The notes under the pieces: generated by a model | The model's database searches: none | What the model saw: the letters and a program-made list of their open reading frames with translations, nothing else | Told to the model about the DNA's origin: nothing | Source: Vicugna vicugna | Lineage: Eukaryota | Assembly: GCA_013265495.1 (NCBI GenBank) | Contig: MU057651.1 | Location: 124,001-188,000, forward strand | DNA length: 64,000 nucleotides | Direction of reading: 5' to 3' | Translations under genes and position numbers: made by a program | Part shown: positions 26,569 to 56,168 of the stretch, one piece after another | How positions within the stretch are numbered: the stretch's first letter is position 1 | Layout of the letters: every line of letters starts with the position of its first letter

Positions 26569-28494
26569 CTGATGCAGTCAGGGGAGGCCCATACATCATC
26601 ACTCATATTTACACTAAAAGAGTATTGTTTATCTGAAATTCAAATTTAACTGGGTTAAATTCAATCTGGCAACCCTACACATGGAGGGTAGAACCAAGGT
26701 GCTCCAGACAACAGCACCAGCTGAACTAGCAGATGCCAGCGCCAACACTCACTCATGTGAGTGAGGGCTCCTGGATGTCCCAGCCAAGTGGAGCCTCCAG
26801 CTGACGGCAGTCCTGGGTGACAGACAGCACGTGGAGCAGAAAAACACCCAGCTGAGCCCAGTCAACCCAGAAAATTCCGAGAGAGAAAAAATGGGTATTG
26901 TTTTAAGGTGTTTTGTTTAACAGAAATGGATATACAAAACATGTGGCTTTGTTAACTCTCCCTCTTTTTCTGTGGTCTGTTATCATTGGATATGATAGGG
27001 ATTCTTTTATTATCCTTCCAGGCTCAATAGGACTTTGTTAAAAATTTGGCTATGGTCCATGTTTAAGTTTATGTGTGTATACAGATTTTCAAACATTTCC
27101 TCAGATTCTTCTTGAAGAAATCTCCAAGGGAAATTTTCTTAATATGTGATTTTCACCCTATTCTTGGAATTTAATCTAATTCCAACTTTCCTCCATAAGA
27201 TGTCTCCATGCCACTCATGCCTGTTAAGTAATAAAAGGCTGTTGCTAAAAACTGTTCAATGAGCCACATGGAAAGCTATATCCTCAGAAGGTTACTTGGT
27301 GAGTATTCAAACAGAACAAGGGGAATTTATTCACTTTGAGAAGTATTCCTCAAAGAAGTTGTCCTGAAACCCTTTCTTTTGCTACAGGGACAGCTTTGTA
27401 AGGGAACTTCTTTTGTTGGGCACATGTAGACAGGGCTCCTCCACCAGACAGCTAATAGATATGCATTGCAGTCCTTGGCCTTTGTGACTATTCCATTGTA
27501 GCACTATTGGGTAGATAAGTCTATCCAATTCTGGGGTTCATTAATAGGAAATGCCTTGCCTACAGATCTAAGCCACTTTTCTCCAATATGACTTTTATAA
27601 GGAATAAAGTTGATACATTGTTCTCTGTATTCTTTTTTCGTATTTCTTAATTGGTTTAGAGCTCAGATGTGAAGCAGGGATGTATTAGGGGTCGGGGAGC
27701 CCTTTAAAGCCTAAGCATTTTGGAGCAAGACCATAGGGAATAATTGGGAGCCAGCAAGACACAGAAAGGGAAGACTATGGGCCAACTGTAAGACCCATCT
27801 CTGCAGGCAGAGCAGGACGTGTGCTCCATAGGGTCAATTTACCACCAAGAATCTTGAAGTGAGCAGTCCTGGGCTGTGTAATTAGTTTCTTCTTCCAGCC
27901 TCACTAATCAGGTGAGTCGTTCCTGTGACTGAGAAGTGAGTGTATAGAGAGGCTAGGAGTGTTTTGGTCATGGATGCCCCTTCATATGGAAGAAATTAAC
28001 AGGAATGGATGATCAGAATTCCCCAGGACAAACCATTGTATGACCCAACTGACTTAAGTTTCTGCCTACTAAATAACTATAATATTCTAGGCCTGCTTCC
28101 TTGAAATAATTACCCAAAATTGCTTAAATAATATTTATCTTGTGTGTTCCTAGATCATCCAGTCACTTGATTACAGTCTCTTAGTTTTCTGCACGGGTGT
28201 CTAAATACTTAGCATGGGCTGTGATTTTAAATGTTCATTCTCTGAGAGCTAGTTCATGTCCAAGGACCCTAAGATACCTCCTTTGATTTCTTTATACTGA
28301 TACTTCCCTCCTGCCTCACTTTAAAGAAAACAAAATTCCTGAGGACAAGCACATGCCTTATTACAACAACGTGGGCAGAGTTCCACCAACCGCCCGGGTC
28401 CCAGTCTAGTGCCTCTGTTTCTCCGGTGGCAGCCTGAAGGGCAAAGATGCTCGGCTTTCAGCGAAATCCAGGGGGTGGATCGCAGTAAGGAGGC

Positions 28495-28551
28495 ATTTCC
28501 GGTGTGGAGAACTTGCCCGCGCATCGCGGTTGCCATAGAAACCTGACGTCA
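28495..28551. promoter_or_regulatory. Promoter cassette A: ETS site + RFX X-box + full CRE in a small CpG-rich island
   Basis: atttccgg 28495-28502, GTTGCCATAGAAAC 28529-28542, TGACGTCA 28544-28551. Confidence 0.75.
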
Positions 28552-29225
28552 TTTGGGCGACCGTGGCGTATTTTTAATGAAGATGGACGCTGCCTGGAGA
28601 GAACAGCAAGTCCCGCCTTCAGGTGTTTGGGGCTGAGCTGAGGGTGTGGGTCCCCGCGGTGGGGGCTGGGCCGCCCTGGGGTGTTGGGAGACAAAGAGAC
28701 CCACATCCAAGTCGGTTCTTTCCCGCTTTGGGCCTCGGTGCCCCGGCTGTCTCATAGGTAAAGACATTGGGGTCCTCCCGGCCCCCTGAGTGCGGTGTCC
28801 TGCTGCAGGGGTGTCCTGGAGCCACTTTCCTTCTAAAGGCAGGGGCGCGGGAGGTGAGACCGGTGACGATTCTCTCTGAGCCTCAACTTTCCCTTCTGTA
28901 AATGGGGATAAGAATGCTTTACCCACAGGATCGCTGTGAACGTTCAGTGGTAACACAGGAGTAAGTTGATGGCTCTGGTTATTGCGGGATCATGAATGTC
29001 TGTATGAATTCAGGACACTCCTTATTCCTTTTCAACTTTTTTTTTAAACAGAGGGGGAAAAAAAAAACCCTGATGAGAAACCCGTTGTAACATCTGGTTG
29101 TTAGGATCACTAACCAATTTTATCAGTGTCATTGTCACTAACCCAGTGCCTAGCATGGTGCCAGGCACACAGTTACATACAGCAGTAAAGCACAGCGATT
29201 GCTGGATCTGTCTCTCCCTGTGCAG

Positions 29226-29388
29226 CATTTCATGCCGGTGGCCCAGCTCATATCAGGTGTCTGAAGGAGGCAGGTTCTGAGGATTTGTGTTCTGATGACT
29301 TCTGAAGCTCCTACTCCAGGTTCAAGGGCAGCAGCTTCCAGGAGACCGCAAACACTTCACATTTTTGGTGGCATGACTCCTGGCTCAA
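29226..29388 (+). other. Candidate internal exon of an unannotated transcript (copy A)
   Basis: Acceptor tgtctctccctgtgcag| and donor AA|GTGAGT, both conserved in copy B (55754-55915). Confidence 0.5.
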
Positions 29389-29989
29389 GTGAGTTCATAG
29401 ATCTGAACAAAAGCATGTTGTGGAATAGCTCCTGTGAGGCTCACAAACTAGCCTAGAAGTAGAGACGCTATTTGACCTCAACATGGGAGAAGAGGTGTAG
29501 CAGAATGGAATTTCACTCCATCAGCAGTTACCTGCTTTGTAGTAGCCCTTGAGGCCCATCAGAGATGCTTTTTTTGTTTGAAAGCAATGAATTGTCCAGC
29601 CTGATGAAGGAACTTGATCTTTAACATGCATTTGGAATAAATATACCTAAATTGTTCTCACTGGGTAAATATTATTCAGTGATTCCCATGTTTCTTTCAG
29701 GGTGGTTGTTGAAATATGCATTTGGTTAGAAAGTCTTTCCAGCAATTTGACATTGTAGTATAGTTTCTTCCCTGGTAGCCACGTTTTTATCCATTCTATA
29801 ATGAAAAATTTTAAGAAGCCAGAACATTTCCAAATGTTAGTTTAAAATGTTTTAAGAGTTTATATATTTTTAAAAATAATTACTTTAGACTGTTTTATTA
29901 ATCTTTTAAAATAACTAAATACTCTTAAATATAGTTCTGTTTACTTTCCCAGTACATAACAGTTTCAGCTCTTTATTACCTGGCCCTTC

Positions 29990-31590
29990 TACCCCTCCCC
30001 CTGCAGTGTACTCAGGCAACCACTGATCTTCTCTCACGACAGATTAGTTTTCATGTCCTAGAATTTTATTTAAATAGAATCATAAAGGGATTTCTGGTTG
30101 GTTGGTTTTGGTCTGACTTCTTTCATTCAGCCTATTTATTTTAGATTTATCCATTTTGTTGCATGTATCAATAATTCATTCTTTTTTATTGATGAGTAGT
30201 ATCTATAAATAGATATATTGCAATTTGTTTGAAATTTGTTGTTTTTTAATTAAAGCTCCAGTGAACATTTGTGTTTAAATTTTTGCACAGACATATGCTT
30301 TCTTTCTCTAAGGTAAATACTTAAGAGTGCAATGGCTGGATCATATGGTAGATGTAAGATTAACGTTGTTAAGAAATTGCCAAACTGCACCATTTTTCAT
30401 TTTCTTCAGCACTGTACCAAAGTTCCATCATCCACAATCTTGCCAATGCTTGGTATGGTGAGTCTTTTTAATTTCAGCCATTCTCATGTGGATGCAATGG
30501 TATCAAATTGTAGTTTTAATTTAAAATTCCCTAATGATGTTATTGAGCACATTTTCATGTGCTTATTTGCTGTTTCTATGTCTTCTCTGGTGAAATGTCT
30601 ATTTAGAATTTTCCCACATTTATTTATTGTAGTGTCTTTTTCTGCCTAATTGACTTTTCATAGATTTTCTGTATTCTGGATACAGATCCTTTGTCAAATA
30701 TGTAACTGGCAAGTATTTTCTCCTACTCAGTGCCTTGACTTCATTCTCTCATCAGTGTCTTAGGGAGGGCAGTTTTTAGCTTAGAAGAAGTCGAATTTAT
30801 GTATTAGTTTACTTATGGATTGTAGTGTTGATGTCTCATCTATGAAATATTCACCTAATCCAAGGTCACAAGGATTTTCTCCTGTGTTTCTTCTAGAAAG
30901 TTGATGGCTTTAGGTTGTATTCAGGTCTGTGATCCATTTTGAGTGGGCTTTTGTGTATAATGTGATATGTGAATCACAGTTTATATCTGTATATATGATA
31001 TCCACTTTTCCCAGCACTTTGTTGATAAGACTATCACTTCTCCACTGAATTGCATTGCCTCTTTTTCAAAAATCAGTTCTCCATATATGTGTGCATGTAT
31101 TTCTGGACTCCTTATTCTTTTCCTTCAATTTACTTGTCTACCTTGATTCCAATACCATACACCCTGTCTTGATTACTGTAGGTTTATAGTGAGTCTTCAG
31201 ATCTGAGAGTGTTCATCCTCCAGCCTTATTCTTCTTTTTCGAAGTTGTTTTTTTATAGTCCATGGCCTCTGCATTTCCACATAAACTTCATAATTGGCCC
31301 ATAATTTTCTTTAAAAAATATTTCCTAAGATGTTTGTTGGGATTGCACTGAGTATATAGGATCAACTTGGGGAGAAGGGACATCTTAACAACATCTTAAC
31401 AATACTGAATCTTCTGATCCATAAGGACAGCTCTCTCTCTGCTTATTTAAGTCTTTAATTTTTCTGAACAATGTTTTGTAGTGTTCAATGAATAGGCCTT
31501 GCATGTTTGTGGACAGATTATCCATAAATATTTCATACCTTTTGATGCAATTGTAAAAAGCATTGTTTTGTAAATACAATTCCCAATTAT
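29990..31590 (-). mobile_element. Old LINE-1 (3'UTR and ORF2 end)
   Basis: Typical antisense L1 motifs (gctggatcatatggta, tccctaatgatgttattgagcacattttcatgtgc, gggattgcactgagtatatagg). Confidence 0.85.
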
Positions 31591-33267
31591 TATATTTTCA
31601 CTGAACTATCAGCAAGCAGATGTTTAATAATAGCCATTGCAGGAAATTTTTGGTGGAACGCACAGGCTACTTTAGGATGGAAAAGCTACTTGATGCATAA
31701 CGTGCTTTGACTGTGTTTCTATATCAGCTTTTAGACATTATTGGCACTATACTGAAACTAGGGAGGAGATATCACAGAGATCATTCTATAGGACATCTCC
31801 CAGGAAGTCCATCTCAATGAATTCCTGGGTTCTTAGGGGGTGAGACAGATAGAAGGAGAGAGCATGTGTGTATGCGAGCACATATGTCTGTATGTATATG
31901 TATGTTGAGGAAGCTGCAAGGAATCTTTATTGTAAGGAATACTTGAGGTTAATACTGTGGTCATGTCAGCCCTGTTCACTTCCTGCCACATAACAGGAGC
32001 CGAATCACAGTGGTTGCTATTTGTTTTTTTCCAGCTTCATTTGGCTAGCATGGTTACCATGGTGACTCAGTGACTGCTGTGGGATTTGGTGCTGATTGAG
32101 AATCATGTTATAATTCTAACCTGAATTTATGACTGTGATAGTTGTCAAGTGTTGCTTTTCTGATTTGCTCATTCCTTTCAGGTTTATTCATTGAAATTTG
32201 CCTAGAGATAGAGTTTTCTCTTCTCCCTGTTTATTTATTTTTTAATTTGTATCAGTATGGCTCATAGATTCCTATTTTGCTCAAAGGGCTACTGTCTGAT
32301 TGTATAATTATTTTGTTGTCTAAATTGTTCCAGAACTGGCCAATAGAAGCCCCTTTAAGCTGGCTTCTGTGTCCTTAGAATTCTTTGAGCATATACTTTG
32401 CTCTTTGAGCCTGAGTATCTCCTAATCTCTAGAAAGAAAATTATGATGCCCACCTCAGAGCATCGCTTTGAGGGACTGAAGATAAGAAGTCTGATAATTA
32501 CAACCTTCAACCTGTGGCATCTAGTAGGCCCACAGCAATGTTCATTTCCCAATCCAGTTTGCCCACTTCATCCTGTCACTGTGATGCCTCTGACGTTACC
32601 ATAATAGCATGACCTCCAGGGAGAACACTTGGGCATGTGACACAAGCAGGGATAAGCCCACATGTCCATGATGTGACAGCTTCAGTGTCACTGCTGTGTG
32701 TGGAGGGGGTGGTGTGGTGGAGCTGGGGGAGGGGCAGAGCATCACTGCACAGCTTCCAGTGAACTGAGTGGGGACGGGCAGAACATCCTCACCCCTTCCC
32801 CTGCATTTCATGTGCTTTACCATCCTCTCACTTTTCTCTGTATTCCATGTGCTGTCTGATCCCCTGTCTCTCCCTTTTAGTGGAACATCTGAGGAGGGTG
32901 AAGACCCTAAGCCCCAGAAACAAGAGCTGATAGAGAAGAACCAAGTATGATGTTGAGCCTGCTAGACAGGTTCCTGGAGCAGGATTGAAGAAGGGGTCGG
33001 CCTATCATTGGGACACTTTAGTTAAGTCACTACCCTTTCCGCCATTGTCTTCTTTACAGCAGGTTAACAGTACCCAGTGCTCTGGACCACCCAGGAATAT
33101 TGTGGAGTTTAGGTATGATCCCATGTGAGAAAGCAATCTGTGCTCATAGGTGGGAGAGAAGAACCAGTGCACTTTCCAGTAATTACATTAACAGACACAC
33201 CCCAGATATCATAGAATTCTGCTTGGCAGGCATTAAATTAATGCTACACAAATGTCAGCTGTTTGGG

Positions 33268-33460
33268 CCAAGATTTCTCCAAGTGGAAGCCTCAGAGGAC
33301 TTTATTAAACTCACGTGGGGGTGCTTGTTAACATTCCAGATCCCTGGGCCCACTCTACGTCTACCGAATCTAAAGCAGGGATGTGGAATGAGAGGTATCT
33401 ACATTTTGAGTAATATCTCCAGTGTTTCTGATACTTATTCAAGTTTAAACACCTCTGCTG
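33268..33460. mobile_element. MER5-like hAT MITE
   Basis: gtgcttgttaacattccagatccctgggccca...gaatct...ttctgatacttattcaagtttaaacacctctg matches the recalled MER5 layout. Confidence 0.6.
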
Positions 33461-33569
33461 TGGACAAACACGTCTTAAAATTTTGAATCCTTTAGTATCT
33501 AATTTCTTTTCCAACCTCAGCCTTAAATATCTGTCTCTGCTCCTGCATGTCAAATAGGTTAACAGTTCC

Positions 33570-34400
33570 TTAATTTAAGTAATATTTATTCAGTGATTTA
33601 TATGTGTGGCATTGAATGAGACACTGGGGACACAGCACAGAGAACAAGACAGGCAGGGTCCCTGAAACTTTCATTCCAGTTTGGGAAAACTGGCCGTAAA
33701 GAGGTGAATCAATAAATGGGGCAATTTCATGTGGGGATTTGCACTTTGATGAAAACAAACACATAAAAAGAATACAAAATGACGGGAACAGGGATTATTA
33801 TAGATGAGGCTGTCAGTGAAGCTCTTTCTCAGGAAGCAGCATTAGAGCTGAATCCTGAACGACAGGAGGACACCTGGACTGGGCGGGTCTTTGGGTCATT
33901 CACCCTGTGATGTGCGTGGCTCTGGTGGTTGCAGGAGTGGATGATGAGCTCGCCTGGGTGGGGCCTGGCAGATGAGGTGCAGGTGGCAGGAGATGAGGGC
34001 GGGCGGGGCAGACAGGAGCCACATGGTCCGGGCCGTGTCAGGAGTTTGGAGTTCATTCTTAGGGCAGAGGGTTAGCGTGTGGGGGTGACAGGCTCTGATT
34101 CACGTGCTCACAAGTTGACTCTGGCCGCTGTGTGGGGAGTGGACTGGACAGGGATGGGATAGCTGTGGGGATAACCCTTAGGAGAAGCTTGCAGAGTCCA
34201 GAGGAGGGACGAGAGTGGATTGGCCCTGAGCTGCAGCAGTGTGCAGAGGGCGGGGTGGCCTGGACAGCGGGTGTAGGAGGTAGGACAGGTGGGACCTGCA
34301 GTGGCTGTAGGGGGTGGGTGTGTGAGGATCAGACAGGATCCAGGATGACCCCTTGGCTTTACCTTTGGTCACGTGTAGAAATGGTGATGTGTTTCCTGAA
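33570..34400 (-). mobile_element. LINE-2 fragment
   Basis: tatttattcagtg...actggggacacagcacagagaacaagacag...gagctgaatcctgaa...ggagtttggagttcattct are typical antisense L2 3' motifs. Confidence 0.65.
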
Positions 34401-35143
34401 GTCAGTTGTTCCAAGTGCTTTTGAGAAGTTCTCAAGATAATTAGGTCATTCAGCAGTGGTTACAGTGAAAGTTAATGATGTACACAATCTATCATTTGAT
34501 GAGTAGCATTCAGTTATAAGACTAATTAACTTTATTGAACATACATGCAAACTATAAAACTATAAAAATATATTATAAGTATTTGTTTAAAGCATGTAGT
34601 GTTTATTGAGCTGTTATTGTGTGCCTAGCACTGTTCTAAGGGTTTTCATGTATTAACTCAATTCTCAAAACAACATCCCATGACATAGGAATGGTTGTTT
34701 TCCCCATTTTACAGAAGATGTAAATGAAACAGAATGGTTCTTTCAGTCTCCTAAGATCACAGAGAGCCAGTAGAATTTTAAAAATATTGGTGTTTAGGAC
34801 CAGTTATCTTTGTTAAGACCAAAGCATGGAATATTATTTGTTTTAAAATGGTTTGTCTTTTACAGTAAATACTGCTTAATCCCAATTTTATATACTCATA
34901 CAGTTTATAAATGACAGAACAATGGTTTGCACCTGGTCTATCTCCAGAACCCACACTTCTAGCCAATACACTTAGGAAGAAGAAAATAAAACATAACTAT
35001 ATCAGGCCACGATGGATGATGTTAGGTTAGAGCCATCCGTATCTCTTTGGGTGGAAACTATGCATCATTAGGCATTTTGCCATGTACCAGATGGTATTTA
35101 TTTAATAAAAGGACAAGGGTAATGATTATAGGAAAAAAAAGCG

Positions 35144-35667
35144 TGTTAAAGATGAACAAACCAGACCTTAGTTAAAGTGGTAAGGACAGATTTTTAATCA
35201 GTAATATACTGTTGTGACAGGAAAAAGAGTCTAGCATGAACTGACCTCAACTTCCATTTGTACAGAGGTGACTAGGCTTTTTAAAGGGAGTATGAGGGAA
35301 AAGGGAGGGGGCTGAGTAGGAGCTCCATACAGTCAGGGAAGGAAAAAGAACAAAAAGCAGGAAGAGGGTGTTCATCCATGTGAAAGCCATCTGGGTTTGC
35401 TACCTGGCACTTATTCAAGTTAGATTTCTACCTCCCACAGAGGCTGGGAGACGCGGTCCTCTCTTCAGCAGTAAATTGTGCTGACAGCCTTGAGTGTTCT
35501 CAGGCGATCACTTTAAAGGAATTTAGGATCATGTTAGGGATGAGGCCTTGAGCTCTTAGAAACTACGTTAGTATTTTGTACAAGACTATTGGCCAGGTTG
35601 AAGCCTGGTTGGAAAGAGAGCTGGGAGGAGTCTGACTAGAGTGTGGTCAAGGAGAGAATCTTTGTCA
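35144..35667 (-). mobile_element. ERV solo LTR
   Basis: TG...CA bounded 524 bp segment with a degenerate 4-bp TSD (agcg / aggg). Confidence 0.65.
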
Positions 35668-35966
35668 AGGGCAATATTTATTAAAAAAAAAACCCACAAA
35701 CAATAAAAGGGAATAATTATTATAGTTCCTATGCATTAGACAACTTGGTTGTTAAAATAATTCCTTGGACTTCCACGATGAATTATTTTCCCTTTTATGA
35801 ACTAACTCAAAGTGCTTTTCAGATGGGAATCACAGTACCCTGTGCTTTAGGCTTCAGTGGTTTGGAGGGATGGTCTGACCCCCTTTGATAGGTGAGGCCA
35901 GTGGAAAAATTCCTAGAATCATGCAGCATGTACTCTTGAGTATGGCTCCTTTCAGTCAACATGGGG

Positions 35967-35992
35967 TGTGTGTGTGTGTGTGTGTGTGTGTG
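35967..35992. repeat. (TG)n microsatellite
   Basis: Perfect GT dinucleotide run. Others seen at ~8687-8705 (CA), ~50777-50803 (GA) and ~52249-52269 (TG). Confidence 0.95.
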
Positions 35993-41889: not shown

Positions 41890-42370
41890 GGTATGTTAGT
41901 TTCCTATGGCTACTATAACAAGTTAGCACAAACTTAGTTGTTTAAAACAAGAGAAATTTATTTCCTCATATTCTAGAAGCCACAAGTCTGAAATTAGTTT
42001 CACTGGGCCAAAATAAAAAGTGTTGGCAGAGCCATGTTCTCTTTGGAGGCTCTGCAGGAGAATCTGTATCTTGCCTCTTCCAGTTTCTGGTGGCAGCCAG
42101 CATTCCTTGGTTTGTGACTACATCACTCCAATTGCTGCCTGCACAGTCATACTGTTTCCTCCTTTTCTGTGTGTGTCAGCTTTTCTTCTGCCTCCCTCTC
42201 TCAAGGGTACTTGTGACTGCACATAGGGCCCACCCAGATTATCTAAAATGAACGCCCTGTTTCAAGATCCTTAATCACATCTGCAAAGCCCCTTTTTCCA
42301 TTTAAGGTAAGATTTATGTTCCAGGGATTGGGACCTGGTGTCTTTGGGGACCATTATTAAGCTTATTACA
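41890..42370 (-). mobile_element. MaLR LTR (MLT1-like)
   Basis: gttagtttcctatggctactataacaagttagcacaaacttag...cttaatcacatctgcaaag...tttggggaccattatt. Confidence 0.8.
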
Positions 42371-43319
42371 GTGATCATACCACTTTGAATCCGCATGAGC
42401 AGTGTATGAAAGCACATGTTGTTTTGCATCCTTACCAACTGAGTGTATTGACAAACCTTTGGAACTTTGCCAGTCTAATAATTTAGAAATGGTGTCTCAT
42501 TGTAGTTTTAATTGCAGTTCTACTTTACAAGCAATTTTGAACCTCTTTTTGCATATTTAAAGACAAGTTACATTTTTTCCCTTTAACTGTTTATTGTTTT
42601 TACATGTCTGTATTAGGGTCATTGGTTCTTTTCTACCTCTCAATTTATAAGCTTGTATATAGATGGGAAATTAGTACTTTTTTAGAGATGTTAGTTGTGG
42701 ATATTTTTCTCAGTGTGTGTTTATTGACGATCATGTTTTTTTTTTTTGCCATGCAAAATTGTTATTTTTTATGTAGTCAAATTTATCAGTTTTTCAAATT
42801 ATGCTCTTGAATTTTGATCATAGTTAGGAAATCTTTCTCCACTTCTATTATAGGTGTTAGCAGGGCTGTGCTCCCTTTGGAGCTTCAAGGGGAGAATCTG
42901 TTCCATCCCTCTTTTGACTTCCAGATTCTTATAATACTTGAATGGTTTTATGTTTTTACACTTAAATCTGAGACATTTGGAATTTATTCTGATTTAAGAC
43001 ATAAAAATGGATCTGTTTTTAAACCTTTTTAACCCTATAGTTATCAACCTATTGCAATACCACTTATTAAATCATCCATCCTTTCTCCAATGATTTGAAA
43101 TGCTACCTTAATCATATTCTAACTTTCCAAATATAATTTAACATATGGCAGTATTTTCTATTCTGCTGCATTAGTCATTCTGTCAATTCCTGGGCCAATA
43201 CCACACGCTTATATTGTACAAGCTTTATATTCTGTTTTAATATCTAGTAGGACCAGCTGCAACCCCTTCCACCAACCGTCACTCTTTCTCTTATTCTGAC
43301 TTTGACTGAAATATTATAT

Positions 43320-44863
43320 TTCAGAATATGCATAGAATCAGAGATAGACCACACAGCTTTAAGGAACTGAGGCTGACTTTATGGAGCCAATAAAGCCCCT
43401 TGGAAAACCAGAAGTCTGTTGCCTTGCTTGCAGTATTCCCAGCAGCTTTCCCAGGTAAGTGAGGAATATCTCTTCCTGCAGACCCAGAAACCTCAAGGGA
43501 CCTCAAGAAAAAAGGAATTAACCTAAATCTATAGGCATTGTAGGTAAAGTTTGATGGCAAGTCCTAGCCTCAAGAAGCTTTTAAAGGTCCAGTTAAGATT
43601 CCTTATGAAAAGCTCCAGCAAAGCATATTTTAAAAGAGCCTCTATGGTCAGCCACTACTCTTGCTACAGTTATGTAAATAACAGGCCAAGTTTAATGGGA
43701 CTAGACTTATTTTGCAAACAAATAGTCTAACTGTAATTTATCTTTGATAGAAGTGAGAGTGGTTTTAGAGAGAAAAAGATGTTTAGTAAAAAACTATAAC
43801 ACATCCTTGTGGATATTAGATTCTAGTCCTGTTCATCATCTTTGAGGTTTTGTTGTCTACCTGTGAACTGGACTGGATACTGAATGCAAGTTTCTTCGGA
43901 CACTGGCTACAACTATGCAAACAAACACTTCCAATTTTCTCCCACCCTTCTGATCTAAAATCAGTAAGAACAAAGACTTCCCTTGAGCCTCCTCAAAAGG
44001 GACCATACCAGGTCCTCCTCACTACCCAGATGGAAGCCAAGCTTCAGACACTTCAATCTTGAGTCCACGTCTCCCAATTAAAGATCACTTCTAGACTCTT
44101 AGAACTGCATCCTAGCTGGAGATCTAAAATTAAACTTGACTAGGGAGATTGCTCTGTAGAAGCAGACAGCATCTTGAGGTGGTCAGTTCTCCCAAGGTCG
44201 TGGATCAAGATCTTTATCTCTAATATGAAACTTTTTTTCGTTTTGCCTTTTTGGTACTTGCTTTTCCTTCTGTTAATGCATGGAAGATGGTGCCCCTTAA
44301 CTCTAGCAACTATTGCTGAATCTGAAAAAAGACTATAGCTACACAACAAAAGTCCCTAGGCTTTCTTGCTGTGGTAGTTTTAAATAACAGAATTGTTTTA
44401 GATTACTTACTGGCTGAACAAGGAGCCTGTGCCATAGTAAATATTGCTGTAAGTGAATCAACACCTCTGGTATTGTAGCAAATTAAAGGACTTAACAAAC
44501 AAGATACTTATCTAGAACGGATAATGCCTTTTCAGGTACATTCTTTGATTTATTCGATGCCAACTGGCTTGGTTGATGAGGGCATTAGCTAAAGAGTACA
44601 TGTTACTCTCTTAGTATTATCCTCCTGATAGTCATCATTGTAGTCTCCCTGGTGCTCTGTGTTCTTTCAAAGGTTTTAAATGCATGTTCACAGCCATCAG
44701 ATGGTCTCACTGTGCTTGAAGAAACAGGAACAAGATGAACAATGAGATAAATAACAAAAGTAATTCTTCTATAGACCTGATATCATAATCTACAAGTTTT
44801 CATGGTGAGACAGGAACAACTTTAATGGCAGCTGAGAGTGGCACAATTACCAAAAGGTGGACT
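43320..44863 (+). mobile_element. Decayed ERV1 (gammaretrovirus-like) internal region with integrase C-terminus and env TM remnant
   Basis: 43975-44085 encodes SLEPPQKGPYQVLLTT..AKLQ...*VHVSQLK (GPY/F motif). The env remnant follows, then a polypurine tract caaaaggtgga before the LTR. Confidence 0.85.
44335..44700 (+). pseudogene. Retroviral env transmembrane subunit remnant
   Basis: QQKSLGFLAVVVLNNRIVLDYLLAEQGACAIVN, frameshift, CCK*INTSGIV, then FFDLFDANWLG** and hydrophobic IILLIVIIVVSLVLCVLSKVLNAC. Confidence 0.88.
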
Positions 44864-45198
44864 TGTTTAAGTAATTAAACAAGGAGATCATTAGACTGAG
44901 GTGGCCCTAATACCGCAGTGGCCTATGTAAGCAAACCAAAATCTAAGCCTGTAAATGACTCAAGGTCACAAAATTATAAAGTAAGGACAACCAACCACAA
45001 ACAGCCAAGTGGGCTTTAAGCCATTGCTAGCCATATAATTTCTTCTCTTAGCTTCCGTACCTTCCTTAAGTAAGTCACTCTCTGAGCTCCTGTCAGTGGA
45101 GCGCTCCTAATCACTTCCTATTTGGTGCTCAGTCAGAATCAATCTTTGCTCACCTAAACCCTCAAAATTCTTAATATGCTTCAGTTTATCTTTTAGCA
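44864..45198 (+). mobile_element. 3' LTR of the decayed ERV
   Basis: Begins TG immediately after the polypurine tract and ends ttttagCA. Confidence 0.7.
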
Positions 45199-45719
45199 GA
45201 ACTCAACAACAGTCTATTATATTTACCTAGATATTTACCATCCTGTTCCTTTTCCTCTGCAAGTACAGTCATATTTCTGTCTAAAAATAAAATGTCATCT
45301 TCCTCACAATGTTATACCCTGCCTTTCTTCACTAGCAACACAAATTGAATGTCATTCAATATCAATAAACAGCCATCTGCATCATAATTTCCATGCTTAC
45401 AAGAATACTAATGACCCATAAAAATAGGAAAGTTTTAAAATTAGTTAACATTTGTTTTGGGTCAAGTAACATTTATTTTCAGAATTGCACTGTGACATTT
45501 TTCATCCTTATTTTACATATAAAGGTAATAAAGAACTGGGAGGTTAGATACTTTGCTTAAGCTTGTACACTTAGAAAATGACACATCATGGATTTAAACC
45601 TAAATAGCATGGCTCCAGAGCTCATAAATATTTAGGGGGATAGAACTTGAGACACAGAAGCACACAGATTAATTATCAAGTTTCAGCCACAGAAACCCAA
45701 ACTGAGACACACTTATGCA

Positions 45720-48250
45720 TACAAATGTTTGTCTTGACTGAAACCTGGTAATAAGATATTTGAAAGGATTTCTTTTTAAAAGGAGCTCTATGGTCAGAAG
45801 TTGGCCAAATTGGACACTGATGTTAAATACCTAATAGGAACTTTTTATGGACATCTCTCCTAAGCTGAAATAGAGCTGTGTACCCAGAGAAAAAGAAATA
45901 TGCTGAAACCTTTGTGGAGTGATTTGCTAAAACATTCCACACACACAGCCCTAAATCTAGAACAAGGGAATCTTTTGATTTCCATCTTGGTTGGAAATCT
46001 CCCTGATGTAAAGAAGCAAATTGAAGATAATGTAGTTGGATGGGCAGGTCAGCTCCTTGATCACTTTCAGCCCAGTTCTTTGAGAAATTAAAAGACAACT
46101 ATCCCTTTCCTGCAAATTGAATCTTTACAAGAACAGAAATCTAGAAGTAATTCAAAGCCCACATATCCTTACTGATATTCAGACCTCTGCTAGTCATCTT
46201 AAAACACTTACAAATATCGTAAAAGATTGGAACATTAGAGTCAGAACTGTCCTGCATTTAAGGGAAAAAAGGAAAATTTAAGAAGTAATTATCCTAGGAC
46301 TTTAATAATAAGCAAATATGCTCCAAAACTCATTCTTGGAGAAAGTTTACATCATTTATCAGTGCCTTTGAGATATAAACTTTCAACCCTGTCTTTTCTA
46401 GGGCCTGAGAGCCATCTCTTTTAAATGCAGACTTCAAGGATATGGTTCTTGTCAGAAGTTAAATAAATAAAAAAAGAACTATTTGGAAACTAGACAAATA
46501 AAAAAATCTTAAAAGTCTTCTCTACAAATATTAGTAAAAAGCTTTAGCCATCTGAGCAGATAACCTTAACTTTTTCCATCTGCCAGAAACAAAATTTGGA
46601 TCCAACCATTCTTTTATAAATTAGTGAGTTTTTAAAACTATTGTACCTATATCATTGCTAATACTTTAAAATGAACGTTATAATTTCTCTATTTGTCTGT
46701 ATGTCTAATGCATATGTTAGAGATGTGTGATATTTCTCTACCTCCAGATGGTAAGAGATTTGTAAAAGATCTCTATTTAATTGGCTTAAAGAAAAATAAG
46801 TGCTTAAATAAATTGTGTTCCTAAACTCTCAGAAATAAGATAGAAACTAACCCAAATGTTTTTCAATTTCACATGATCTGAGATAATCTTCAGTAAGTAA
46901 AAGCTAGTTTAAGTTTGTTGGATTAATTAAGACATACATATGGCTTCAGAGTTATCAACATTAAATATAATGCAGATACAACTTTCATTCTGTCTAAATG
47001 TACTAGTCATAAGTTCATATTACCTCTTAAAATATTTGTTAGCAAGAAAAGTAAGAAGATTATGGATAGCTGTTTAATGTCTGTTAAAACTTCATGAGTG
47101 ATCTAAATATAATTGTTAAAAGCAAGTGAATTAAAAAAATGTACATAAGACAAAAGTTTATAAAATAACTTTCAAACCATAATTATGTTTTATAATGTCA
47201 TCTTAAAAATAGTTTCCCAAATATTTTTAGTAACTTCCAACCTTAGAATTTTGCAAAGTTAATTTAAATGTTGGATACTCTTGGAATATTGATATCATTT
47301 CAAAATAAGTTAAGGTACTGAAACATTAATTGTTAAACACAAGTCTAGGTTTACCTACTTTTATCCTCTTGTTAAAAAGGAACAGAAGATATTTGGGTTT
47401 GTTAGTAAAAATGTTTTGTGCCACACTGAAAGATTGTACTATAAGGAAGGATATACTTTTAGAAATTATCAAATGGATTCATAAATCCACCAATTTACAG
47501 AATGTAGGGATAGAACAGACAGTTCACAATTGCTTACCTCCTAGTTTTCACTGTAGACTATGGTTTGTAAGCATTAAGAATTCTAATTAATACATATAAT
47601 TTAAACTACTAAATATACTATGGGAAATTATTTCATCTCTGTAGGTAAGAAAAGGTATGAGATATGGAGATGTATTTTTGGTAGAGGAAAAAGGTAATTT
47701 TGCCCTAAAGTAGAATGACTTTTTCAGAATGAGAAAGAAGAGAATACAGGACACTCTAAATAGTTATAAAAAGCAGAGGGGAGAGAGAGAGAATTTTACC
47801 TTGTATGGTCTAACTGACTAAAATGGAATGAATTTATTATAAAGGTTTAAATAATATGCTTTAATATAAATAGTATGTTTATGTTAAACTAAAACTTAAT
47901 TTTCTTTTATCAGCTGAAAGGTCAAAGTTTCACTGTTGGTCTGTTCTTGAGAAGAGATTGGGAAAAAATTTCTGTGCCTTTTAAAGTATTTGCCTAGAAA
48001 GGTGATATTTTTTGTCTTTCTAAAATAATTTCCTGTGCTTCCTTGTTTTTATCAGGTCATTGATTACATAAGAAAATTGAGTCTTTTCAATTTTTAATTA
48101 AAAGAGCTAAATTTTGCTCACAACTATGTAAACTTTTATATTTGCCTTTAAAATCTTTCATTGTCACTTAGGTTCAATAGATAATTAGATATTGTTCCAT
48201 AATGATCTGTGATCCTATTTAGTCAAATGTCCTTTTAAATTATCTGTAAC
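45720..48250 (+). mobile_element. AT-rich ERV1 internal sequence (MER4-group-like)
   Basis: Long AT-rich non-coding tract with motifs recalled from MER4-group internal regions (aaggagctctatggtcagaagttggc, gaaactaacccaaatgtttttcaa). Boundaries approximate. Confidence 0.55.
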
Positions 48251-49336
48251 CTCGTGTTATTTTGGAATCCTTAAAAGATCAAAATTCAAGATAGAAAAAA
48301 ATCATTAGAAACCCTTAAAAGTCTACTATTTATGGTTAAGTACTCTTAGAGTTGAGTGTATATTTGTTTTCAGAAATTTTGTTATGCAAATACAACCTGC
48401 ATATTTAAGATGAACAATGAGATGATACCCAACATACAGTTTCGTAAACTGCTTTTTTTTTCTACAAACAAAATATTATGGAGGTCAGAACAAGCAAATC
48501 AGTATAATCCCACATAATAATAAAATGGCCTTATAAACACTCATGGTCAATTTAGGTATGATAATGATAAGAATGGTTATTTTTTGACTTCCTCTGTCCC
48601 TACAGTGTTGTAAGTGCTAAACCTATACTTGCTTATTTAATCCTCACCACATCCAATAAGGAGGAGCTATGGTTGCCTGACTTTAAGCATCAGGGAACTG
48701 GGGCACAGTGAGGGCAGGGCAGGCAAGTCACAAGACTAAGAGATGAACAGATTCTGGGTGGCTACTGAGCCCCACGTATAACTAGTGTCTGCTAGTGCTT
48801 CTCATCTGGTAAGACCCTCAACCTTACTGTTCATCAGGGCACAGCAAACAAACCAAACTGAGATCCCATGTTTTCCTTTCTCAGTTAACTAGGTAAAAGT
48901 TTAAACAACTGATCTTAATCAGTGTGGTTTGGAATTTGGGAACCTATGTCCTATTACATTGTAAAAGGGGCTCCTCCAACATTCTGTCCCACTTCCTGTG
49001 CCTCTGGGATATTGCCATTCTAAAGTGGATAGCTTTCCTGTGCTTGGGTCAGAAAATGCCTATGTTTCTCCAGCCTTTTTAATATTTTGTATAATTGCAA
49101 GTACAATAGGAATTTATTTAGTTAAAAATAGATGACATACAAAGAGAAATAAAGAATACCTCAATGCCCACCACCCAAAGAAAAGCCCTTCTAATGTTTT
49201 CATCTGGATTATATTCCTCCAGAGTGATTCTTATGCAGATATCATATATTTATACAGGGATGCATACATTTATATGTTTACACACAAAACATAGGATCTC
49301 ATTTTACATTTAATTTTGTAACTTGCTTATCTCACT

Positions 49337-49762
49337 GTTGTGGGTTGAATTGTTTCCAAATCATGACACTCCCATGTCTTATTTGGAAACAGTGTCTTTG
49401 TAGATACAATTAAGTTAAAGATCTTGAGAGGAGATCATCTTGAATTTAGGATGGTCCCTAAACCCAGTGACCAGTGTCCTTATAATAGAAAGGAGATGGA
49501 GCTTTCACACACACAGGGAAGTAGGTCATTTGAAAATAGAGGCAGAGACTGGAGTTACGTTGCCAAAAGCCAAGAAAGCCAAGAGCTACCAGTAGTTGGA
49601 AGAGGAAAGGAAGGAGTCTCCTCTAGAAGCTTCAGAGGAAGCTTGGCCCTACCAACGCCTTGATTTCAAATTTCTGAGCTCCAAACCTATAATATAATGA
49701 ATTTCTGTTGTTCTGAGCCACAAAGTTCTTGTTAATTAATAAAGACAGCCCTAGGAAACTAA
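49337..49762 (+). mobile_element. MaLR LTR (MLT1C/D-like)
   Basis: tgttgtgggttgaattg...ttatttggaaacagtgtctttgtagat...gatttcaaatttctgagctcca...cagccctaggaaactaa. Confidence 0.85.
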
Positions 49763-49880
49763 CGTACTCACTAACCATACACCTCAAATGTCACTGATTG
49801 TGAATAAACATCACTCTGTATCCTATTTTTTAATGCCTGTGAAGATAGGAATACCAATAAAACTATATAAGAGAAATAGG

Positions 49881-50281
49881 GGCTTCAAGATGGCAGAATC
49901 GAAGGGCGTGGAGCTCACCCTCCCCCACAAATACATCAAAAATACATCTACATGTGGAACAGCTGTCACAGTACCTACTGAACTCGGACAGAAGATCTTG
50001 TACAAGTGGATCTAAAGGAAAATCTTCACAAAACCAGATAAACAAGAAGGTCTTTCTGTATAGCACAGGGAGCTATATTCAATACCTTGCCATAGCCTAT
50101 AGTGAAAAGAATATATATGTGTACAGCATATGTATATATATATATACACATATATGTATGTATACATATATATGTGTATGTGTGTGTGTGTATATATATA
50201 TATATGCAGCTGAATCACTATGCTGTACACCAGAAAGTAACACAGTATTGTAAATCGACTATACTTCAATTAAAAAAAAAA
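49881..50281 (+). mobile_element. Internally deleted L1: ~155 bp of 5' end joined to ~245 bp of 3' end with poly(A)
   Basis: 5' part ggcttcaagatggcag...cacaaatacatcaaaaatacatctacatgtggaac. 3' part is the reverse complement of the L1 tails at 14417-14773 and 61034-61408. Imperfect TSD taaga..aaatagg. Confidence 0.75.
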
Positions 50282-50776
50282 GATATCTAAGAAAAATAAA
50301 TAGGTTAAATTCTTAAGTCCTAGTGATTTTCCTGTATTGATTCATTTAATGTTCCCAGCACTCCATAAGATAGATACTGTTGTTCATCCCCATTTTGTAG
50401 ACAAAAAGCTGAGGGACACACAGAACTTGGCCCAGGAGTGCACAGTCAGGGAACGGGACAGTTTAGGTTTGTACCCAGCACCTCATGTTCCAGAGCCTGA
50501 GAAACTGTCAAAGATTTGTTGTGTAGTGACAGAAGCAGCTGGCAAAGGCATGCATAATTTAGGAGGTCATGAAGCAATATTCATATATTACATATTTATA
50601 CAAATAGCTGGACCTAGTGACCTTGGTGAGAGCACGTTCCTTGCAATCACAGGGACAGGTTCAAATAGTGCATTGAGATAAGAGGTCAGTGGGAAGTGAA
50701 GAATGTTAACAGGGAATGCTGCAAATGCTTTCTGGAACTTTGATTTTGTTGGATGGGGGAGAAAGGGAGAGAAAAG

Positions 50777-50807
<31 letters not shown>

Positions 50808-52757
50808 CCTGTGACCAAATGGGGAAAAAGGGTGGAAAGACGAATTTTTTTTAACATCTTCAGTTCCTTAAAAGTATAAAAGTTGATGTGCAGGAGCCAT
50901 GTCATCTCAGGTTTAACCTTTGAATTTTCCCATACTTCCCTCTTATTTCCACTTTAGAGTTAATGAGATGCCTCCAATGAACAGTATGAGTCTTTGAGCT
51001 CAATATATATTTAGCCATGAGTGAATAGAAGAATGAATAATTGTGTGTCAAAGAAATGCTAGTGGAATTTTGCTTCTCAGGGAGGCAGCAAATGGCTCAA
51101 ATCCTGGTGTGATGTGGCTAGATGATGCATGATCTGAGGACCCCTGCACAGGTGACTGAGATGGGTCTAGAATTTTCCTATAAATATGTTAACATATGGA
51201 GCAGTCCAGGAGCAGCAGTTAGGTAAACACCACAGCTTGCTGCCCTGGTGCCATCTCTCACTGAGCTCACCAGGTGAGTCAAAGGCAAGACTGTCTTCCC
51301 AGCGTGGGGAACTGGATTAGGATCAGCACACAGGCATGATGTTGGCAGCTCTTATTAGCTTCTGAATCCCCCAAGAACCTAGAGCTCCTTCTGTCTTTAA
51401 AACTTTGAACTAAAGGCTTATCAAAACGATATTTGCTTCCTTCATAAAGATATCTGTCTCATTAGGAGAAACTATGAGAAATGACTTTTCACAGTGCCTG
51501 TCTTAGCACCCATGGCTCAGCCAACTTGTACAGCTGTATCTCAACATTTAAAGGGCCCTTGAAATCCCACCAGGTGTCATATACTCTGGGCAGGCTTTCT
51601 CATTCACCCCTCAGGACACTGTGACACAGGTATCATGAGTCCCACATCATAGATGCCCAAGTCAGAGCCTCAGTCACCTCTCTAGATAAATGACCCCTCA
51701 GATACTGGGTTCATATCCACAATTTGTGTAGCATCCTTACTATCAAACAGAGAAATTGACAAGTAATTTAAACTAAGAATTCACATTAAAATATACAGGA
51801 ACAATCAACATGTTAAAATATGCCAAAAATCACAAGAGCTAATATCATGAAAATATTTCAAAGATCCTGAGAATTAATATTAAGTCAAGACAAGACAAGA
51901 TATGAAAGAAGGAAGAAAATGTGAAATCTCTTGGAAAAGGCCAGGAGCCTGTGCAGGTGTCTATGTTTGTGTGCCCTCACCTACAGGGACATGTCTGGAT
52001 AAGAGGCACTGTTCTATGACAACAGGCCCCTTTGGGTCAGGGAATAGGAGTAAGACTTGAGAGACGCAGGACAATTTCAATTTGTAAGTATACTTGCATA
52101 CAATGTTTAGAAATACTGTACTCAGGAAAAACAGTACTTTGGTAAAACTTTGAAAACAAAATAATTGCAAACAGATTGGCCAAAGTAATTTGTATTCATT
52201 GTATTGTATTTCATGGGGAAATGAAGTAGATAAAAAAATTGAATTGACTGTGTGTGTGTGTGTGTGTGTTTCTATGTCCCTTCTGGCTCTACCACCTCAA
52301 ATACATGCCCGCAGTTGAAGCTTTACCCTTAGTTAATACCTAAGATGGACTTCCAGCCTCATGTTTAGATATCCTAGAAAATGTGTTTCTTTATATCCTA
52401 GAAAAGTGATGGAATACCCTGCTTTTGTATAGGCTGCCGAGCCTTCCTCTCACACACGGTGTCATCACCTGTCAAGACACAAAACACTACTGTACAGGCT
52501 GCCCACACCACGATCCCAAACCTCACACTCTCTCAGTCGCCTCCTTCCTGCCCTTCACCTGCCCACTGACTGCCAAGGTGCGCTGCTGCCACTTGGCATT
52601 TCATCAAGCTGTGGAGTATATGTGTTTACAGTCTTCTTTTACACCTGTCAGATTTTTTCAGATAGAATTAGAATCATTCTGTACATAGATCCATAGGCTG
52701 GATTTTAAGGGAGGGTACCGTAGTTTTGTTGAATTAAATTGTTCGTAAGAAATTTTA

Positions 52758-52888
52758 TTTTTTATTTTTTATTTCTTGGGGTGGGGAATTAGATTTATTT
52801 ATTTATTTTTAATGAAGGTACTGGGGATTGAACGCAGGACCTTGTGCATGCTAAGCAGGCGCTCTTCCACTGAGCTATACCCCTCCCC
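52758..52888 (-). mobile_element. tRNA-derived SINE (Vic-1-like)
   Basis: Reverse complement of ggggaggggtatagctcagtgg...gttcaatccccagtacc. 11-bp TSD aagaaatttta at 52747-52757 and 52890-52900. Confidence 0.92.
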
Positions 52889-55011
52889 GAAGAAATTTTA
52901 AAATGGCGATATGTTCGCGCCACCTCGTGACCGAAACCTGAACTGCAGCTTGAACATTGCAGAAAAGGAGAGTGGGAGGGAGGGGCTGTGACAAAAACCC
53001 AACACCACAGAGCTTTTTGAAAGTCTGGGTGTAAAGGGTGGAATTCCTTGGGTACAGCTATACTGATGGCCTCTTTCTGGACATTTCATATAAATGGAAT
53101 CATACAATTCGTGGTATTTTGCATATTCGGCTTCTTTCCATTGGCATATTGTTTTCAATGTTCATCTGTGTTGTAGTATGCATCAGTAATTCATTCCTTC
53201 CTATTGCCAAATAGCTTACCACATTTTCATTATCCATTCGGTAGTTGGTGGATATTTGGGTGGTTTTTGCTTTTGGCTATTGTGAATGATGCTACGTACA
53301 TTTGTGTACAAGTTTTTATGTAACTGTATGTTGTCATTTCTCTTGGCTGTGTACCTAGGTGTGGAATTGCTGAATCATCTGATAACTCTGTTAAACTGAG
53401 GAACTGCCACACTGTTTTCATGACCCTGACAGCCTTGAGGAGTATACGCAATTAGTTTACTCGTGATTAGACTGTGGTTATTGGCTTTGAGAAAGGATAC
53501 CACAGAGTAAGTGTCCTCGTCACATCATATATGGGAGGTCATGACACTCTGGTGAAATCACTGGGTCACTGGAGATGTTGACCTTCATCACTGGGTTAAT
53601 GTGGTGTTTGTTGAGTTTCTCCAGTGTACAGTAACTGTTTTCCATTTGCTTCCTCTGTTCTTTAGAAATGAGTAACTAAGTCTGCCCTGACCTCAGCAGT
53701 AGGAGGGGGAAGGTTCACCTCATGGAAGGAAGGTATATATATAGATTTTTTGGAATTATTTGATAAACACAGTTTGCTGTCACCAATTTCTTTTGTTAAT
53801 TCAAAATTTTATTTAATCAGTATGGATTCATGTATACTTATGTTGTGGGTTTGTTCTTTTATTTCACTTAATGCATACAGAAGAAAGTCCAGCATCATGA
53901 TTTCTGTGCTGTGATAAAAGAGTTTTGACTTAACAGTCAGGAAACTGCAGAAGAGTTCCTTATTACCACAATTATATTGTCTGAATATGACATAATAGAT
54001 AATGCTTTTAGAAAATATATTTAATCATGGCAGAGTTGGAACAGCAATATAATTTAAGGCTATTTTATTTCATACATGGCAATCCCTTGAGAAAGAAATG
54101 AAGACCAGATAAGTTGGTTTTCTTATTGAAGTGACCACAAATAATTATTGCTAACTTGCACTAAAAATATTTACAAAATCCGTTTCAGTAAAGCAAAAGT
54201 ATGAGCTATGTCAGAGAAAAAGTGTGCTTCATTTGAAAGCCCATTATTCAGAGCACTGCCTTCACATTATCTGGCTCTGTCTCCATGGAAGGTATTTCAC
54301 AACCTGAGCTTTTCAGTGACTGATCACACTCTAGTATGATCTTGTCTATATCCAAACAATCGAATTCTTGGGGGGAAGATAATCCTTTCCTCTTGGGGAA
54401 ATACCTGTTTGCCTGTATTTAAACAATCATTTCAACATTCTTGATGTATAGTAGAAGTGACAAAGAGGTGGTTGTTGAGTTGGCAAGTGTAATTTCAGTG
54501 GAAGTGTTGGGGGAACCCAGCCCCATTAATGAGGGATAGAGACAGAGCTGGAGAGGAGGTGCAGGGAGATGTGAACTGAGTGTGGAGAATTCTTTGTAGA
54601 ACTTTGGTGAAAGGGGAGACAATATATACAGAGGACAGTAACTAGAGATGAGAAGAGAGGCTTAGAGCTTAAAGCAAAGCATATTTTAAAATCATTTATT
54701 ATAAGAAAACTTGAGCAGGTTGGAATCTTAATGGGAAGGAGCCATTTCTTCTTAGATTTAATATCTGAATTTAGGACACCAGACTTTCCACATGTTAATT
54801 CCTTATTTCCATTCTGGAGAAGCCTGAAACTTAACAAAAGGGATGGGGTAGAGTTTGGTTTTAATGCCTGTTAACTGGAAGAATGGATAGATGGATGTCA
54901 AACTTGTGCTGACTATTCACGGATTTGTATGTCCCAGTGCAGAGCTCTTTATGCAGATGACAGAACCTGTGCTGTTGGGAGGCTGAGAGGAGGCAGCAAA
55001 TGATATCAGGT

Positions 55012-56168
55012 AGGAGGCATTTCCGGTGTGAAGGCCTTGCCTGAGCATCGCGGTTGCCATAGAAACCTGACGTCATTGGGGCGACAGTGAGGACTTTTTA
55101 ATACAGACTAACATAACCCTAGGGAAAGAGAAGGACCCGCCTTCAGGTGTTTGGGGCTGAGCCGAGGGTATGGGTTCCTGCGGTGAGGGCTGGGCCGCCC
55201 TGGGGTGTGGGGAGACAAAGGGATCCATATCCAAGTCTCCTCTTTTCCCGCTGTGGGGCTCGGTGCCCCGGCTGTCTCATAGGTAAAATCTGGGGTGCCT
55301 TCCGGCCCCCTGAGTGTGGTGTCCTGCCTCAGGGGTGTCCTGGAGCCACTTTCCTTCTAAAGGCAGGGGAGCAGGAGGTGAGACCGGTGACAAGTCTTTC
55401 TGAGCCTCAGCTTACCCCTCTGTAAAATGGGGCTAAGAATGCTTTACCCACAGGATCACTGTGAACATTCAGTGATAACACAGGAGTAAGTCCATGGCCC
55501 TGTGGTTATTGCAGGATCATGAATGTTTATATGAATTCAGGCCATTGCTTATTCATTTTCAACTGTGTTGTTAGGGGATGGACAAGGAAACGAGAAAAAA
55601 AAGGCTCTGATGAGAAGCCCGTTGTAATATCTGGTTGTTAGGATCACTAACCAATCAGTGTCATTGTCACTAACCCAGTGCCTAGCATGGTGCCAGGCAC
55701 ACAGTTACAGCAGTAAAGCATAGTGATTGCTGGATATGTCTCTCCCTGTGCAGCTCCTCATGCCAGTGGCTCAGCTCATATCAGGTGTCTGAAGGAGACA
55801 GGTTCTGAGGATCTGTGTCCTGATGGCTCCTGAAGCTCCTACTCCAGGTTCAAGGGCAGTGGCTTCCAGGAGACCCCAACACTTCACATCTTTGGTGGCA
55901 TGACTCCGGACTTAAGTGAGTTCATAGATCTGAACAAAACTATGTTGTGGAATAGCTCCTGTGAGGCTCACAAACTAGCCTAGAAGTAGAGAAGCTACCT
56001 TGATCTCATCATGGGAACGAGGTTTAGCAGGTGGAATGTCATTCCATCAGCAGCTATGTGTTTTATAGTAGCCCTGAAGCCCATATTAGAGATGTCCTCT
56101 TTTTGCTGAAAGCAATGAATTGTGTAGCTTGACAAGGAACTTGGCCTTTAACATGCATTTGGAATAAA
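55012..56168 (+). repeat. Local segmental duplication, copy B
   Basis: Direct repeat of 28488-29640 at an offset of ~26.5 kb. Confidence 0.95.
55019..55075. promoter_or_regulatory. Promoter cassette B: ETS + RFX X-box + CRE
   Basis: atttccgg 55019-55026, GTTGCCATAGAAAC 55053-55066, TGACGTCA 55068-55075; motifs identical to copy A. Confidence 0.7.

Follow-up and report, generated by a model that had tools for sequence, protein, structure and literature searches.

We analyzed a 64,000-nucleotide stretch of the Vicugna vicugna genome (GenBank assembly GCA_013265495.1, contig MU057651.1, positions 124,001 to 188,000 of the forward strand), called the window below and numbered from its first base. 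The window lies in the X-chromosomal camelid BEX/TCEAL cluster, and just after BEX3 it holds a duplicated unit with the features of a promoter. Copy 1 (28488..30154, plus strand) and copy 2 (55012..56682, plus strand) are 80% identical and stand 10.9 and 37.4 kb, respectively, downstream of the first exon of BEX3. The duplicate is longer than the first-pass annotation of this DNA had stated. Homology continues between 30131-30741 and 60508-61551, through a shared old long interspersed element (LINE) remnant to about 30740 and 61550. This remnant lies in the same place in both copies and is reached through shared unique AT-rich sequence; that of copy 2 is split by later insertions. Upstream of about 28480, no homology between the copies was detectable (local score of 30, with a shuffle mean of 30).

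Each copy opens with three motifs. In copy 1, a site with a CCGGAA core, which we take to be of the ETS type, occupies 28495..28503 on the minus strand, within a 19-nt run identical in both copies. It is followed at 28529..28542 by an X-box two mismatches from a perfect palindrome, which agrees with the RFX consensus pattern. One base past the X-box lies a palindromic cyclic AMP response element (CRE; 28544..28551) with the consensus given in PMC3091680. In copy 2 all of them are intact (55019..55075), with the ETS-type site at 55019-55027, likewise on the minus strand, the X-box at 55053-55066, and the CRE at 55068-55075. The first-pass annotation had described this arrangement, and we found it as described in both copies. 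With as many as 3 mismatches allowed, the X-box/CRE composite matches the window at these two places only, more than chance would give (shuffles averaged 0.01), and the two count as one event because both sit within the duplication. A third X-box, a full match to the degenerate consensus, occurs at 32053-32066, 3.5 kb downstream of copy 1 and outside any CpG island, and a weaker palindrome-like site lies at 24099.

The same composite (X-box, one base, CRE) was found in metagenome contigs at 14 loci (12 distinct), none of them homologous to the window. The spacer base there is always G or A; the window has C. These contigs (L001-L014) have CpG observed/expected (o/e) ratios of 0.5-1.3, several carry a second CRE, and they probably come from non-mammalian eukaryotes. 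Among 70 of the 134 nearby open reading frames (ORFs), Pfam recognized no ciliary family. As the composite is present in 12 distinct unrelated loci, it is a recurring motif pair that is not unique to this locus, and it may be a widespread one in promoters.

A CpG-rich region starts near the motifs and runs downstream. In copy 1 it spans 28380..28900 (521 bp, GC content of 0.61) with a CpG o/e of 0.64, while most 1-kb bins of the window are below 0.3. A CpG island has a GC content above 0.5 and a CpG o/e above 0.6 over at least 200 bp; copy 1 qualifies and the CpG-depleted copy 2, at 0.42-0.44, does not. Copy 2 keeps 13 of the 27 promoter CpGs of copy 1 and has 1 that copy 1 lacks. The asymmetry (13 versus 1, p=0.002; deamination-type changes, 8 versus 1, p=0.04) suggests, in this comparison of the two copies, methylation and decay of copy 2. 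Both copies retain the CpGs within the motifs, at 28500 and 28547.

A 33-nt block shared perfectly by the two copies (28521-28553 and 55045-55077) had been singled out in the first-pass annotation, with more diverged sequence on either side. The block is there in both copies. It is the fourth-longest perfect run in a 1.15-kb tract of 88% identity; the longer ones, of 52, 51, and 40 nt, all lie further downstream, and when the 28488-29640 alignment was shuffled, 83% of the trials contained a run of at least 33 nt, against 41% for the whole alignment. The motif cluster (28488-28570) is 87% identical, compared with 89% for 28488-29470. The block is not special, and the idea that it reflects selection on the motifs is unsupported. 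What stands of the diverged flanks is a single 41-nt patch directly after the motifs (28571-28611, 54% identity) and the end of homology at the upstream edge. The longest run (29122..29173) lies inside an L2-like remnant. Another remnant, MIR-like, occupies 28865..28960, is 91% identical between the copies, and weakly matches 50330-50425 of the window (E value of 0.09); L2 and MIR are presumably the families of these two remnants.

Identity between the copies drops from 87% to 72% at a changepoint supported at 29466-29653, which was stronger than in all 2000 permutations. The Kimura two-parameter distance is 0.13 (0.10-0.15) before this step and 0.32 (0.26-0.38) after it. Repeat-like remnants within the tract are 91-100% identical between the copies, which selection on three motifs would not produce. 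A sharp identity step that includes neutral sequence is what gene conversion predicts. The simplest reading is that the unit was duplicated long ago and that its first 1.0-1.15 kb later underwent conversion, and we propose that this non-allelic homogenization gave rise to the perfect runs. Gene conversion of 5' noncoding regions has been documented for this cluster, including the BGW element (Winter and Ponting, PMC1274310), and conversion in the cluster, including RAB40A/RAB40AL, has also been reported (PMC2724270).

A consensus scan combined with the alignment of the copies predicts a first exon at 28555..28960 on the plus strand, with its start placed by inference. Four candidate donors match the consensus, with first intron bases at 28623, 28758, 28854, and 28961, and all four are kept in copy 2. 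A predicted second exon of 163 nt follows (29226..29388, plus strand), bounded by a polypyrimidine-CAG acceptor ending at 29225 and a strong predicted CAA/GTGAGT donor at 29389. Both consensus matches are kept in both copies, and the corresponding exon of copy 2 (55754..55915, plus strand) is one base shorter. A further acceptor is predicted at 29700, again in both copies. An AATAAA at 29636..29641 (plus strand) ends a 23-nt run that the copies share, where the high-identity tract reaches its downstream end; its counterpart, placed by the alignment, is at 56163..56168 (plus strand). At 32880-32950, a polypyrimidine-AG acceptor followed by a purine-rich, exon-like stretch forms a candidate downstream exon of copy 1, with no Pfam match.

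The first-pass annotation had reported no recognizable gene downstream, and our searches agree. No coding gene follows the copies among 300 of the 328 stop-to-stop ORFs of at least 45 amino acids between 26 and 64 kb; the Pfam matches in these 300 were an L1 ORF1 at 58.8-59.2 kb, endogenous retrovirus (ERV) remnants, and three below the cutoff, and the BEX domain was absent. A tblastn search with six TCEAL9/BEX3 proteins matched only TCEAL9 and BEX3 themselves, so no BEX/TCEAL coding exon was found after the unit. No Rfam family was found in the unit, and the sole matches in the window were two tRNA-like ones, both outside it.

Relatives of exon 2 were found in the DNA of other mammals. A phmmer search with its 53-codon frame gave four matches, two of which are true homologs; the repeat proteins P0031 and P0033 were dropped as chance matches, and a profile search added two more. 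The four homologs (P0032, P0034, P0041, and P0042) are gene-caller products without names from host or mammal-like DNA. By tblastn, P0034, P0041, and P0042 match both camelid copies at E values of 1e-14 to 1e-19, and P0032 matches them at 6e-23 and 3e-12. Their presence in other mammals' DNA makes the element older than the camelids; the promoter motifs turned up in no mammal besides this camelid. Over a shared frame of 36 residues, the camelid copies agree with each other at 33 positions and with the others at 23-26, and P0042 scores 30 against P0036 and P0041. This grouping is consistent with lineage-wise homogenization if P0042 is a paralog; it may be another species' ortholog. The flanks of P0034, P0041, and P0042 read like translations of what we take to be ruminant short interspersed elements (SINEs). 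Scans of genome and viral contigs gave no match to exon 2.

We looked for transcription by sampling 88 words from copy 1 (28470-29420) in 24 listed sequencing runs. Of these, seven, either recorded or guessed to be RNA and belonging to three studies, hold 0.26-0.33 of the words. Three of the seven are recorded as transcriptome sequencing (RNA-seq); all are from one study and labeled "reproductive system metagenome," a label that gives neither sex nor tissue. Another six, of unrecorded type, contain 0.74-0.91 of the words; these are probably DNA and uninformative on expression. Not counted as evidence were seven further runs (0.14-0.18), one with a share of 0.03, and three raw-read runs that lacked an index. 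By our estimate, spliced forms would give a share of 0.14-0.63; the observed values fall inside this range, which has no discriminating power.

Published RFX binding data from mouse ependymal cells place peaks around Bex3. In Table S8 of PMC7498320, RFX1 shares peaks with RFX3 at -15.9, +20.7, and +43.2 kb relative to Bex3, and RFX3-only peaks lie at +36.2 kb and +43.8 kb. The downstream peaks common to both factors are spaced by 22.5 kb; the camelid X-boxes, at +10.9 and +37.4 kb, by 26.5 kb. This match is one of position and is suggestive. At the genome-average rate, finding two RFX peaks within 45 kb would have a Poisson probability of 0.007-0.011, a figure that overstates the significance because RFX peaks are frequent in this cluster. 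The same table has a shared RFX1/RFX3 peak between Tceal9 and Bex3 (Tceal9 +9.3 kb); between camelid TCEAL9 and BEX3, no 14-mer lies within 3 mismatches of the palindromic X-box. Another mouse RFX1 peak lies 75.5 kb upstream of Tceal3, roughly where human RAB40A starts relative to TCEAL3 (88 kb).

The unit is most likely the 5' end of an unannotated noncoding transcription unit, either a long noncoding RNA (lncRNA) or the untranslated leader exons of something beyond the window. With moderate confidence, we read it as a CpG-island promoter driven by RFX, CREB, and ETS factors, with noncoding leader exons, that was duplicated long ago and partly homogenized by conversion, with copy 1 active in RFX-rich tissues, perhaps including the reproductive tract. 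This reading builds on the motifs, the duplication, the identity step, the CpG asymmetry, the homologs elsewhere, and the lack of a conserved reading frame, which was judged for exon 2 only; from these we infer factor binding, a start site, splicing, a tissue range, and conversion as the cause of the step. The small CpG island would be kept open by RFX1, RFX2, or RFX3 bound to the X-box as a dimer, by a dimer of the CREB/ATF/CREM type bound to the neighboring CRE, and by an ETS factor. Polymerase II would start just downstream of the motifs on the plus strand, and the transcript would splice from one of the four donors to the 163-nt second exon and then either splice on or end at the AATAAA near 29640. 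Activity would be expected wherever RFX1-3 and CREB-family factors coexist, as in ciliated epithelia, the brain lining, the reproductive tract, and germ cells, and not in spermatids alone. After the old duplication, the first 1.0-1.15 kb would have been homogenized by non-allelic gene conversion; copy 1 would be the likelier active copy and copy 2 the eroding one. The first-pass annotation had proposed a second, duplicated transcription unit in the cluster. The part that survives is a start unit outside the BGW family, to which the CpG-rich promoter, the splice signals in both copies, the homologs, the RNA-seq words, and the mouse peaks point; its suggestions of a microprotein and of a spermatid link do not.

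Several points weigh against this reading. The start, strand, and splicing of the unit are predictions from consensus matches, and its downstream exon and 3' end are candidates. For four of the seven word-holding runs, RNA is a guess, and in any RNA run the words could be present as DNA. The mouse peaks correspond in position only, and the supplement also places RFX peaks near Bex4, Nxf3, Kir3dl2, and Tceal3. Homologs of the P0034/P0041 type have SINE-like sequence at the expected acceptor, so exon 2 is not kept everywhere. The identity step may also stem from constraint on a short transcript ending at the AATAAA, the place of the best changepoint; against such constraint, indels become more frequent from just after 29457, before the AATAAA.

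If the copies were mainly RFX/CREB-bound distal enhancers of BEX3 or of neighboring BEX/TCEAL genes, with RNA as a by-product, their distances from BEX3 and the lack of a coding gene of their own would be explained. The mouse peaks at similar distances are assigned to Bex3 by proximity, and X-boxes do occur in enhancers with promoter activity (PMC5838959). Enhancers would not be expected to keep splice signals and an AATAAA on one strand in both copies, however, and functional X-boxes mostly lie within 500 bp of a start site (PMC5838959). In addition, the rows listed for differential expression in Rfx2/Rfx3 mutants do not include Bex3, which occurs 3 times in the supplement, each time in a different table from that one (PMC7498320). 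We regard the enhancer explanation as unlikely. The copies could also be relics, the surviving 5' ends of a lost gene with functionless residual transcription, kept similar by conversion alone. This would fit the missing coding partner, the frame shifts and SINE-like insertions of exon 2 in other mammals, the CpG loss in copy 2, and a motif cluster no better conserved than its surroundings. A relic is at odds with the CpG o/e of copy 1, more than twice that of most of the window, and with three motifs that are intact, CpGs included, in both copies, and it seems to us rather unlikely.

A promoter specific to spermatids and driven jointly by RFX2 and CREM-tau, the link drawn in the first-pass annotation, is an improbable explanation. 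The near-consensus X-box, the full CRE, and the reproductive label of the three recorded RNA-seq holders favor it, but that label comes from one study and names neither sex nor tissue. RFX2 and CREM have largely nonoverlapping target sets (Kistler 2015, PMC4498915), only about 1% of CREM-occupied promoters are CREM regulated, and a full CRE is no predictor of regulation (Martianov 2010, PMC3091680). No CREM or CREB peak row was found in seven supplementary files at the computed mouse positions, which were obtained by arithmetic with orthology unproven. The mouse peaks are those of RFX1 and RFX3 in ependymal cells; among the rows listed in the PMC7498320 supplement, no RFX2 peak is assigned to Bex3, and none of six neighboring gene stems is named in the RFX2 testis supplement (PMC4498915). 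Testis activity of the unit is possible; spermatid specificity is unsupported.

A microprotein of 53 (or 27) residues, encoded by exon 2 read through its donor, is very improbable. In its favor, copy 1 has an open frame at 29295-29456, the copies differ by one indel in 29226-29456 and by eight in the next 185 nt, and the frame of the ruminant-like P0034, measured to the donor, is as long as that of copy 1. The proportion of nonsynonymous differences (pN, 0.058) is below that of synonymous ones (pS, 0.113), on 7 and 4 changes, too few to test. The frames and start codons differ among the homologs, however: copy 2 is frameshifted, P0032 matches in changing frames with both methionines missing at the aligned places, and P0034, P0041, and P0042 have a C-terminal half broken up by SINE-like sequence. 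No annotated protein corresponding to the frame was found by word index, exact lookup (0 of 6), or profile search, and an Atlas search gave only unnamed or Kelch-like leads. Exon 2 is probably noncoding, as judged from these alignments. An interspersed repeat such as a long terminal repeat (LTR) seems, on indirect evidence, more improbable still. Two dispersed copies amid abundant LINE and ERV remains might recall one, but there are only two in 64 kb, they nest older repeat-like remnants, and they have no terminal repeats and continue into shared unique AT-rich sequence.

The closest known counterpart of the unit is the BGW element of the BEX, TCEAL (WEX), GASP (ARMCX), and HNRNPH2 genes (PMC1274310; PMC7586669). 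Like the unit, it is a multicopy, GC-rich, 5' noncoding promoter module in the same X-linked cluster, apparently homogenized by gene conversion, with a similar layout of short noncoding exons. Unlike it, the unit carries an X-box, a CRE, and an ETS-type site in place of an E-box, has no sequence similarity to it, and is not followed by a BEX/TCEAL coding exon. The copies do not fit the definition of BGW as an approximately 60-bp motif with an internal E-box. The window contains TCACGTGAC at 3456 and 17627 and nowhere else, and local alignment of BGW segments gives scores of 18-21 with the copies and of 66 with each other, with shuffle maxima of 30-33; the first-pass annotation was right to set the unit apart from the E-box module of BEX3 and TCEAL9. 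The unit evolves like a BGW element yet is outside the BGW family. The BGW elements of TCEAL9 (3433-3529) and BEX3 (17602-17698) are themselves 71% identical, with a half-CRE just before each E-box. The coding sequence of TCEAL9 (4629..4925, plus strand) is an ORF in a TCEAL9-named protein cluster, with 97 of 98 residues as in a camelid record and 89 of 98 as in the cattle protein; that of BEX3 (18587..18925, plus strand) falls in a BEX3-named cluster.

With RFX1/2/3 target promoters (PMC7498320, PMC5838959, PMC4498915), the unit shares a full, near-palindromic 14-bp X-box in CpG-rich DNA beside a start site, which is predicted here. It differs in having no known ciliary or other coding gene downstream and in that its RFX site is known from sequence alone. 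In the S-X-Y module of class II genes of the major histocompatibility complex (MHC), an RFX5 site likewise directly adjoins a CREB-type site; the unit has a full palindromic X-box instead of the RFX5 half-site and a full CRE at one-base spacing. The 5' noncoding ends of human RAB40A and LINC00630 (Xq22) are possible relatives. With 3 mismatches allowed, two published small interfering RNA targets of LINC00630 found no counterpart in the window, a weak test. In the human table of PMC1274310, the annotated gene that follows BEX3 is RAB40A, which, like the unit, is in the Xq22 cluster without a BGW mark; its conversion with RAB40AL was mentioned above. Unlike the unit, it lies on the opposite strand, about 140 kb from BEX3. 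A730046J19Rik was considered as a gene of this region, which was not borne out; it is listed as Sertm2.

We conclude that the locus holds a real, apparently undescribed RFX/CRE promoter pair of an ordinary type; no earlier description was found in the open-access literature, where unnamed elements mostly cannot be found. If transcribed as predicted, it would give the BEX3-TCEAL interval of Xq22, which has been linked to neurodevelopmental deletions and duplications (PMC7586669), an RFX-responsive unit missing from its annotation, and, if our reading is true, it would be this cluster's second instance of gene conversion at the promoter level. CpG-island promoters of lncRNAs are often duplicated, and the unit has no function in sight; its value is therefore one of annotation and evolutionary detail, unless the module is eutherian-wide and common to RAB40A-type genes. 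A doubtful but wider possibility is that the unit represents a second eutherian-wide Xq22 promoter/leader module besides BGW, RFX/CRE driven, multicopy, and converted lineage by lineage, which was recruited by unrelated incoming genes (e.g., primate RAB40A/RAB40AL) and placed parts of the cluster under the cilia-gene regulator RFX.

Two further features were seen around copy 2. Between the copies, at 43300-48300 on the plus strand, lies a decayed endogenous retrovirus with weak Pfam matches to integrase (43820-44059) and envelope (44326-44475). At 52380-53070, 2-2.5 kb upstream of copy 2, mild CpG enrichment accompanies a AAAATGGCG word, which we take to be YY1-like, beside a tRNA-derived SINE.

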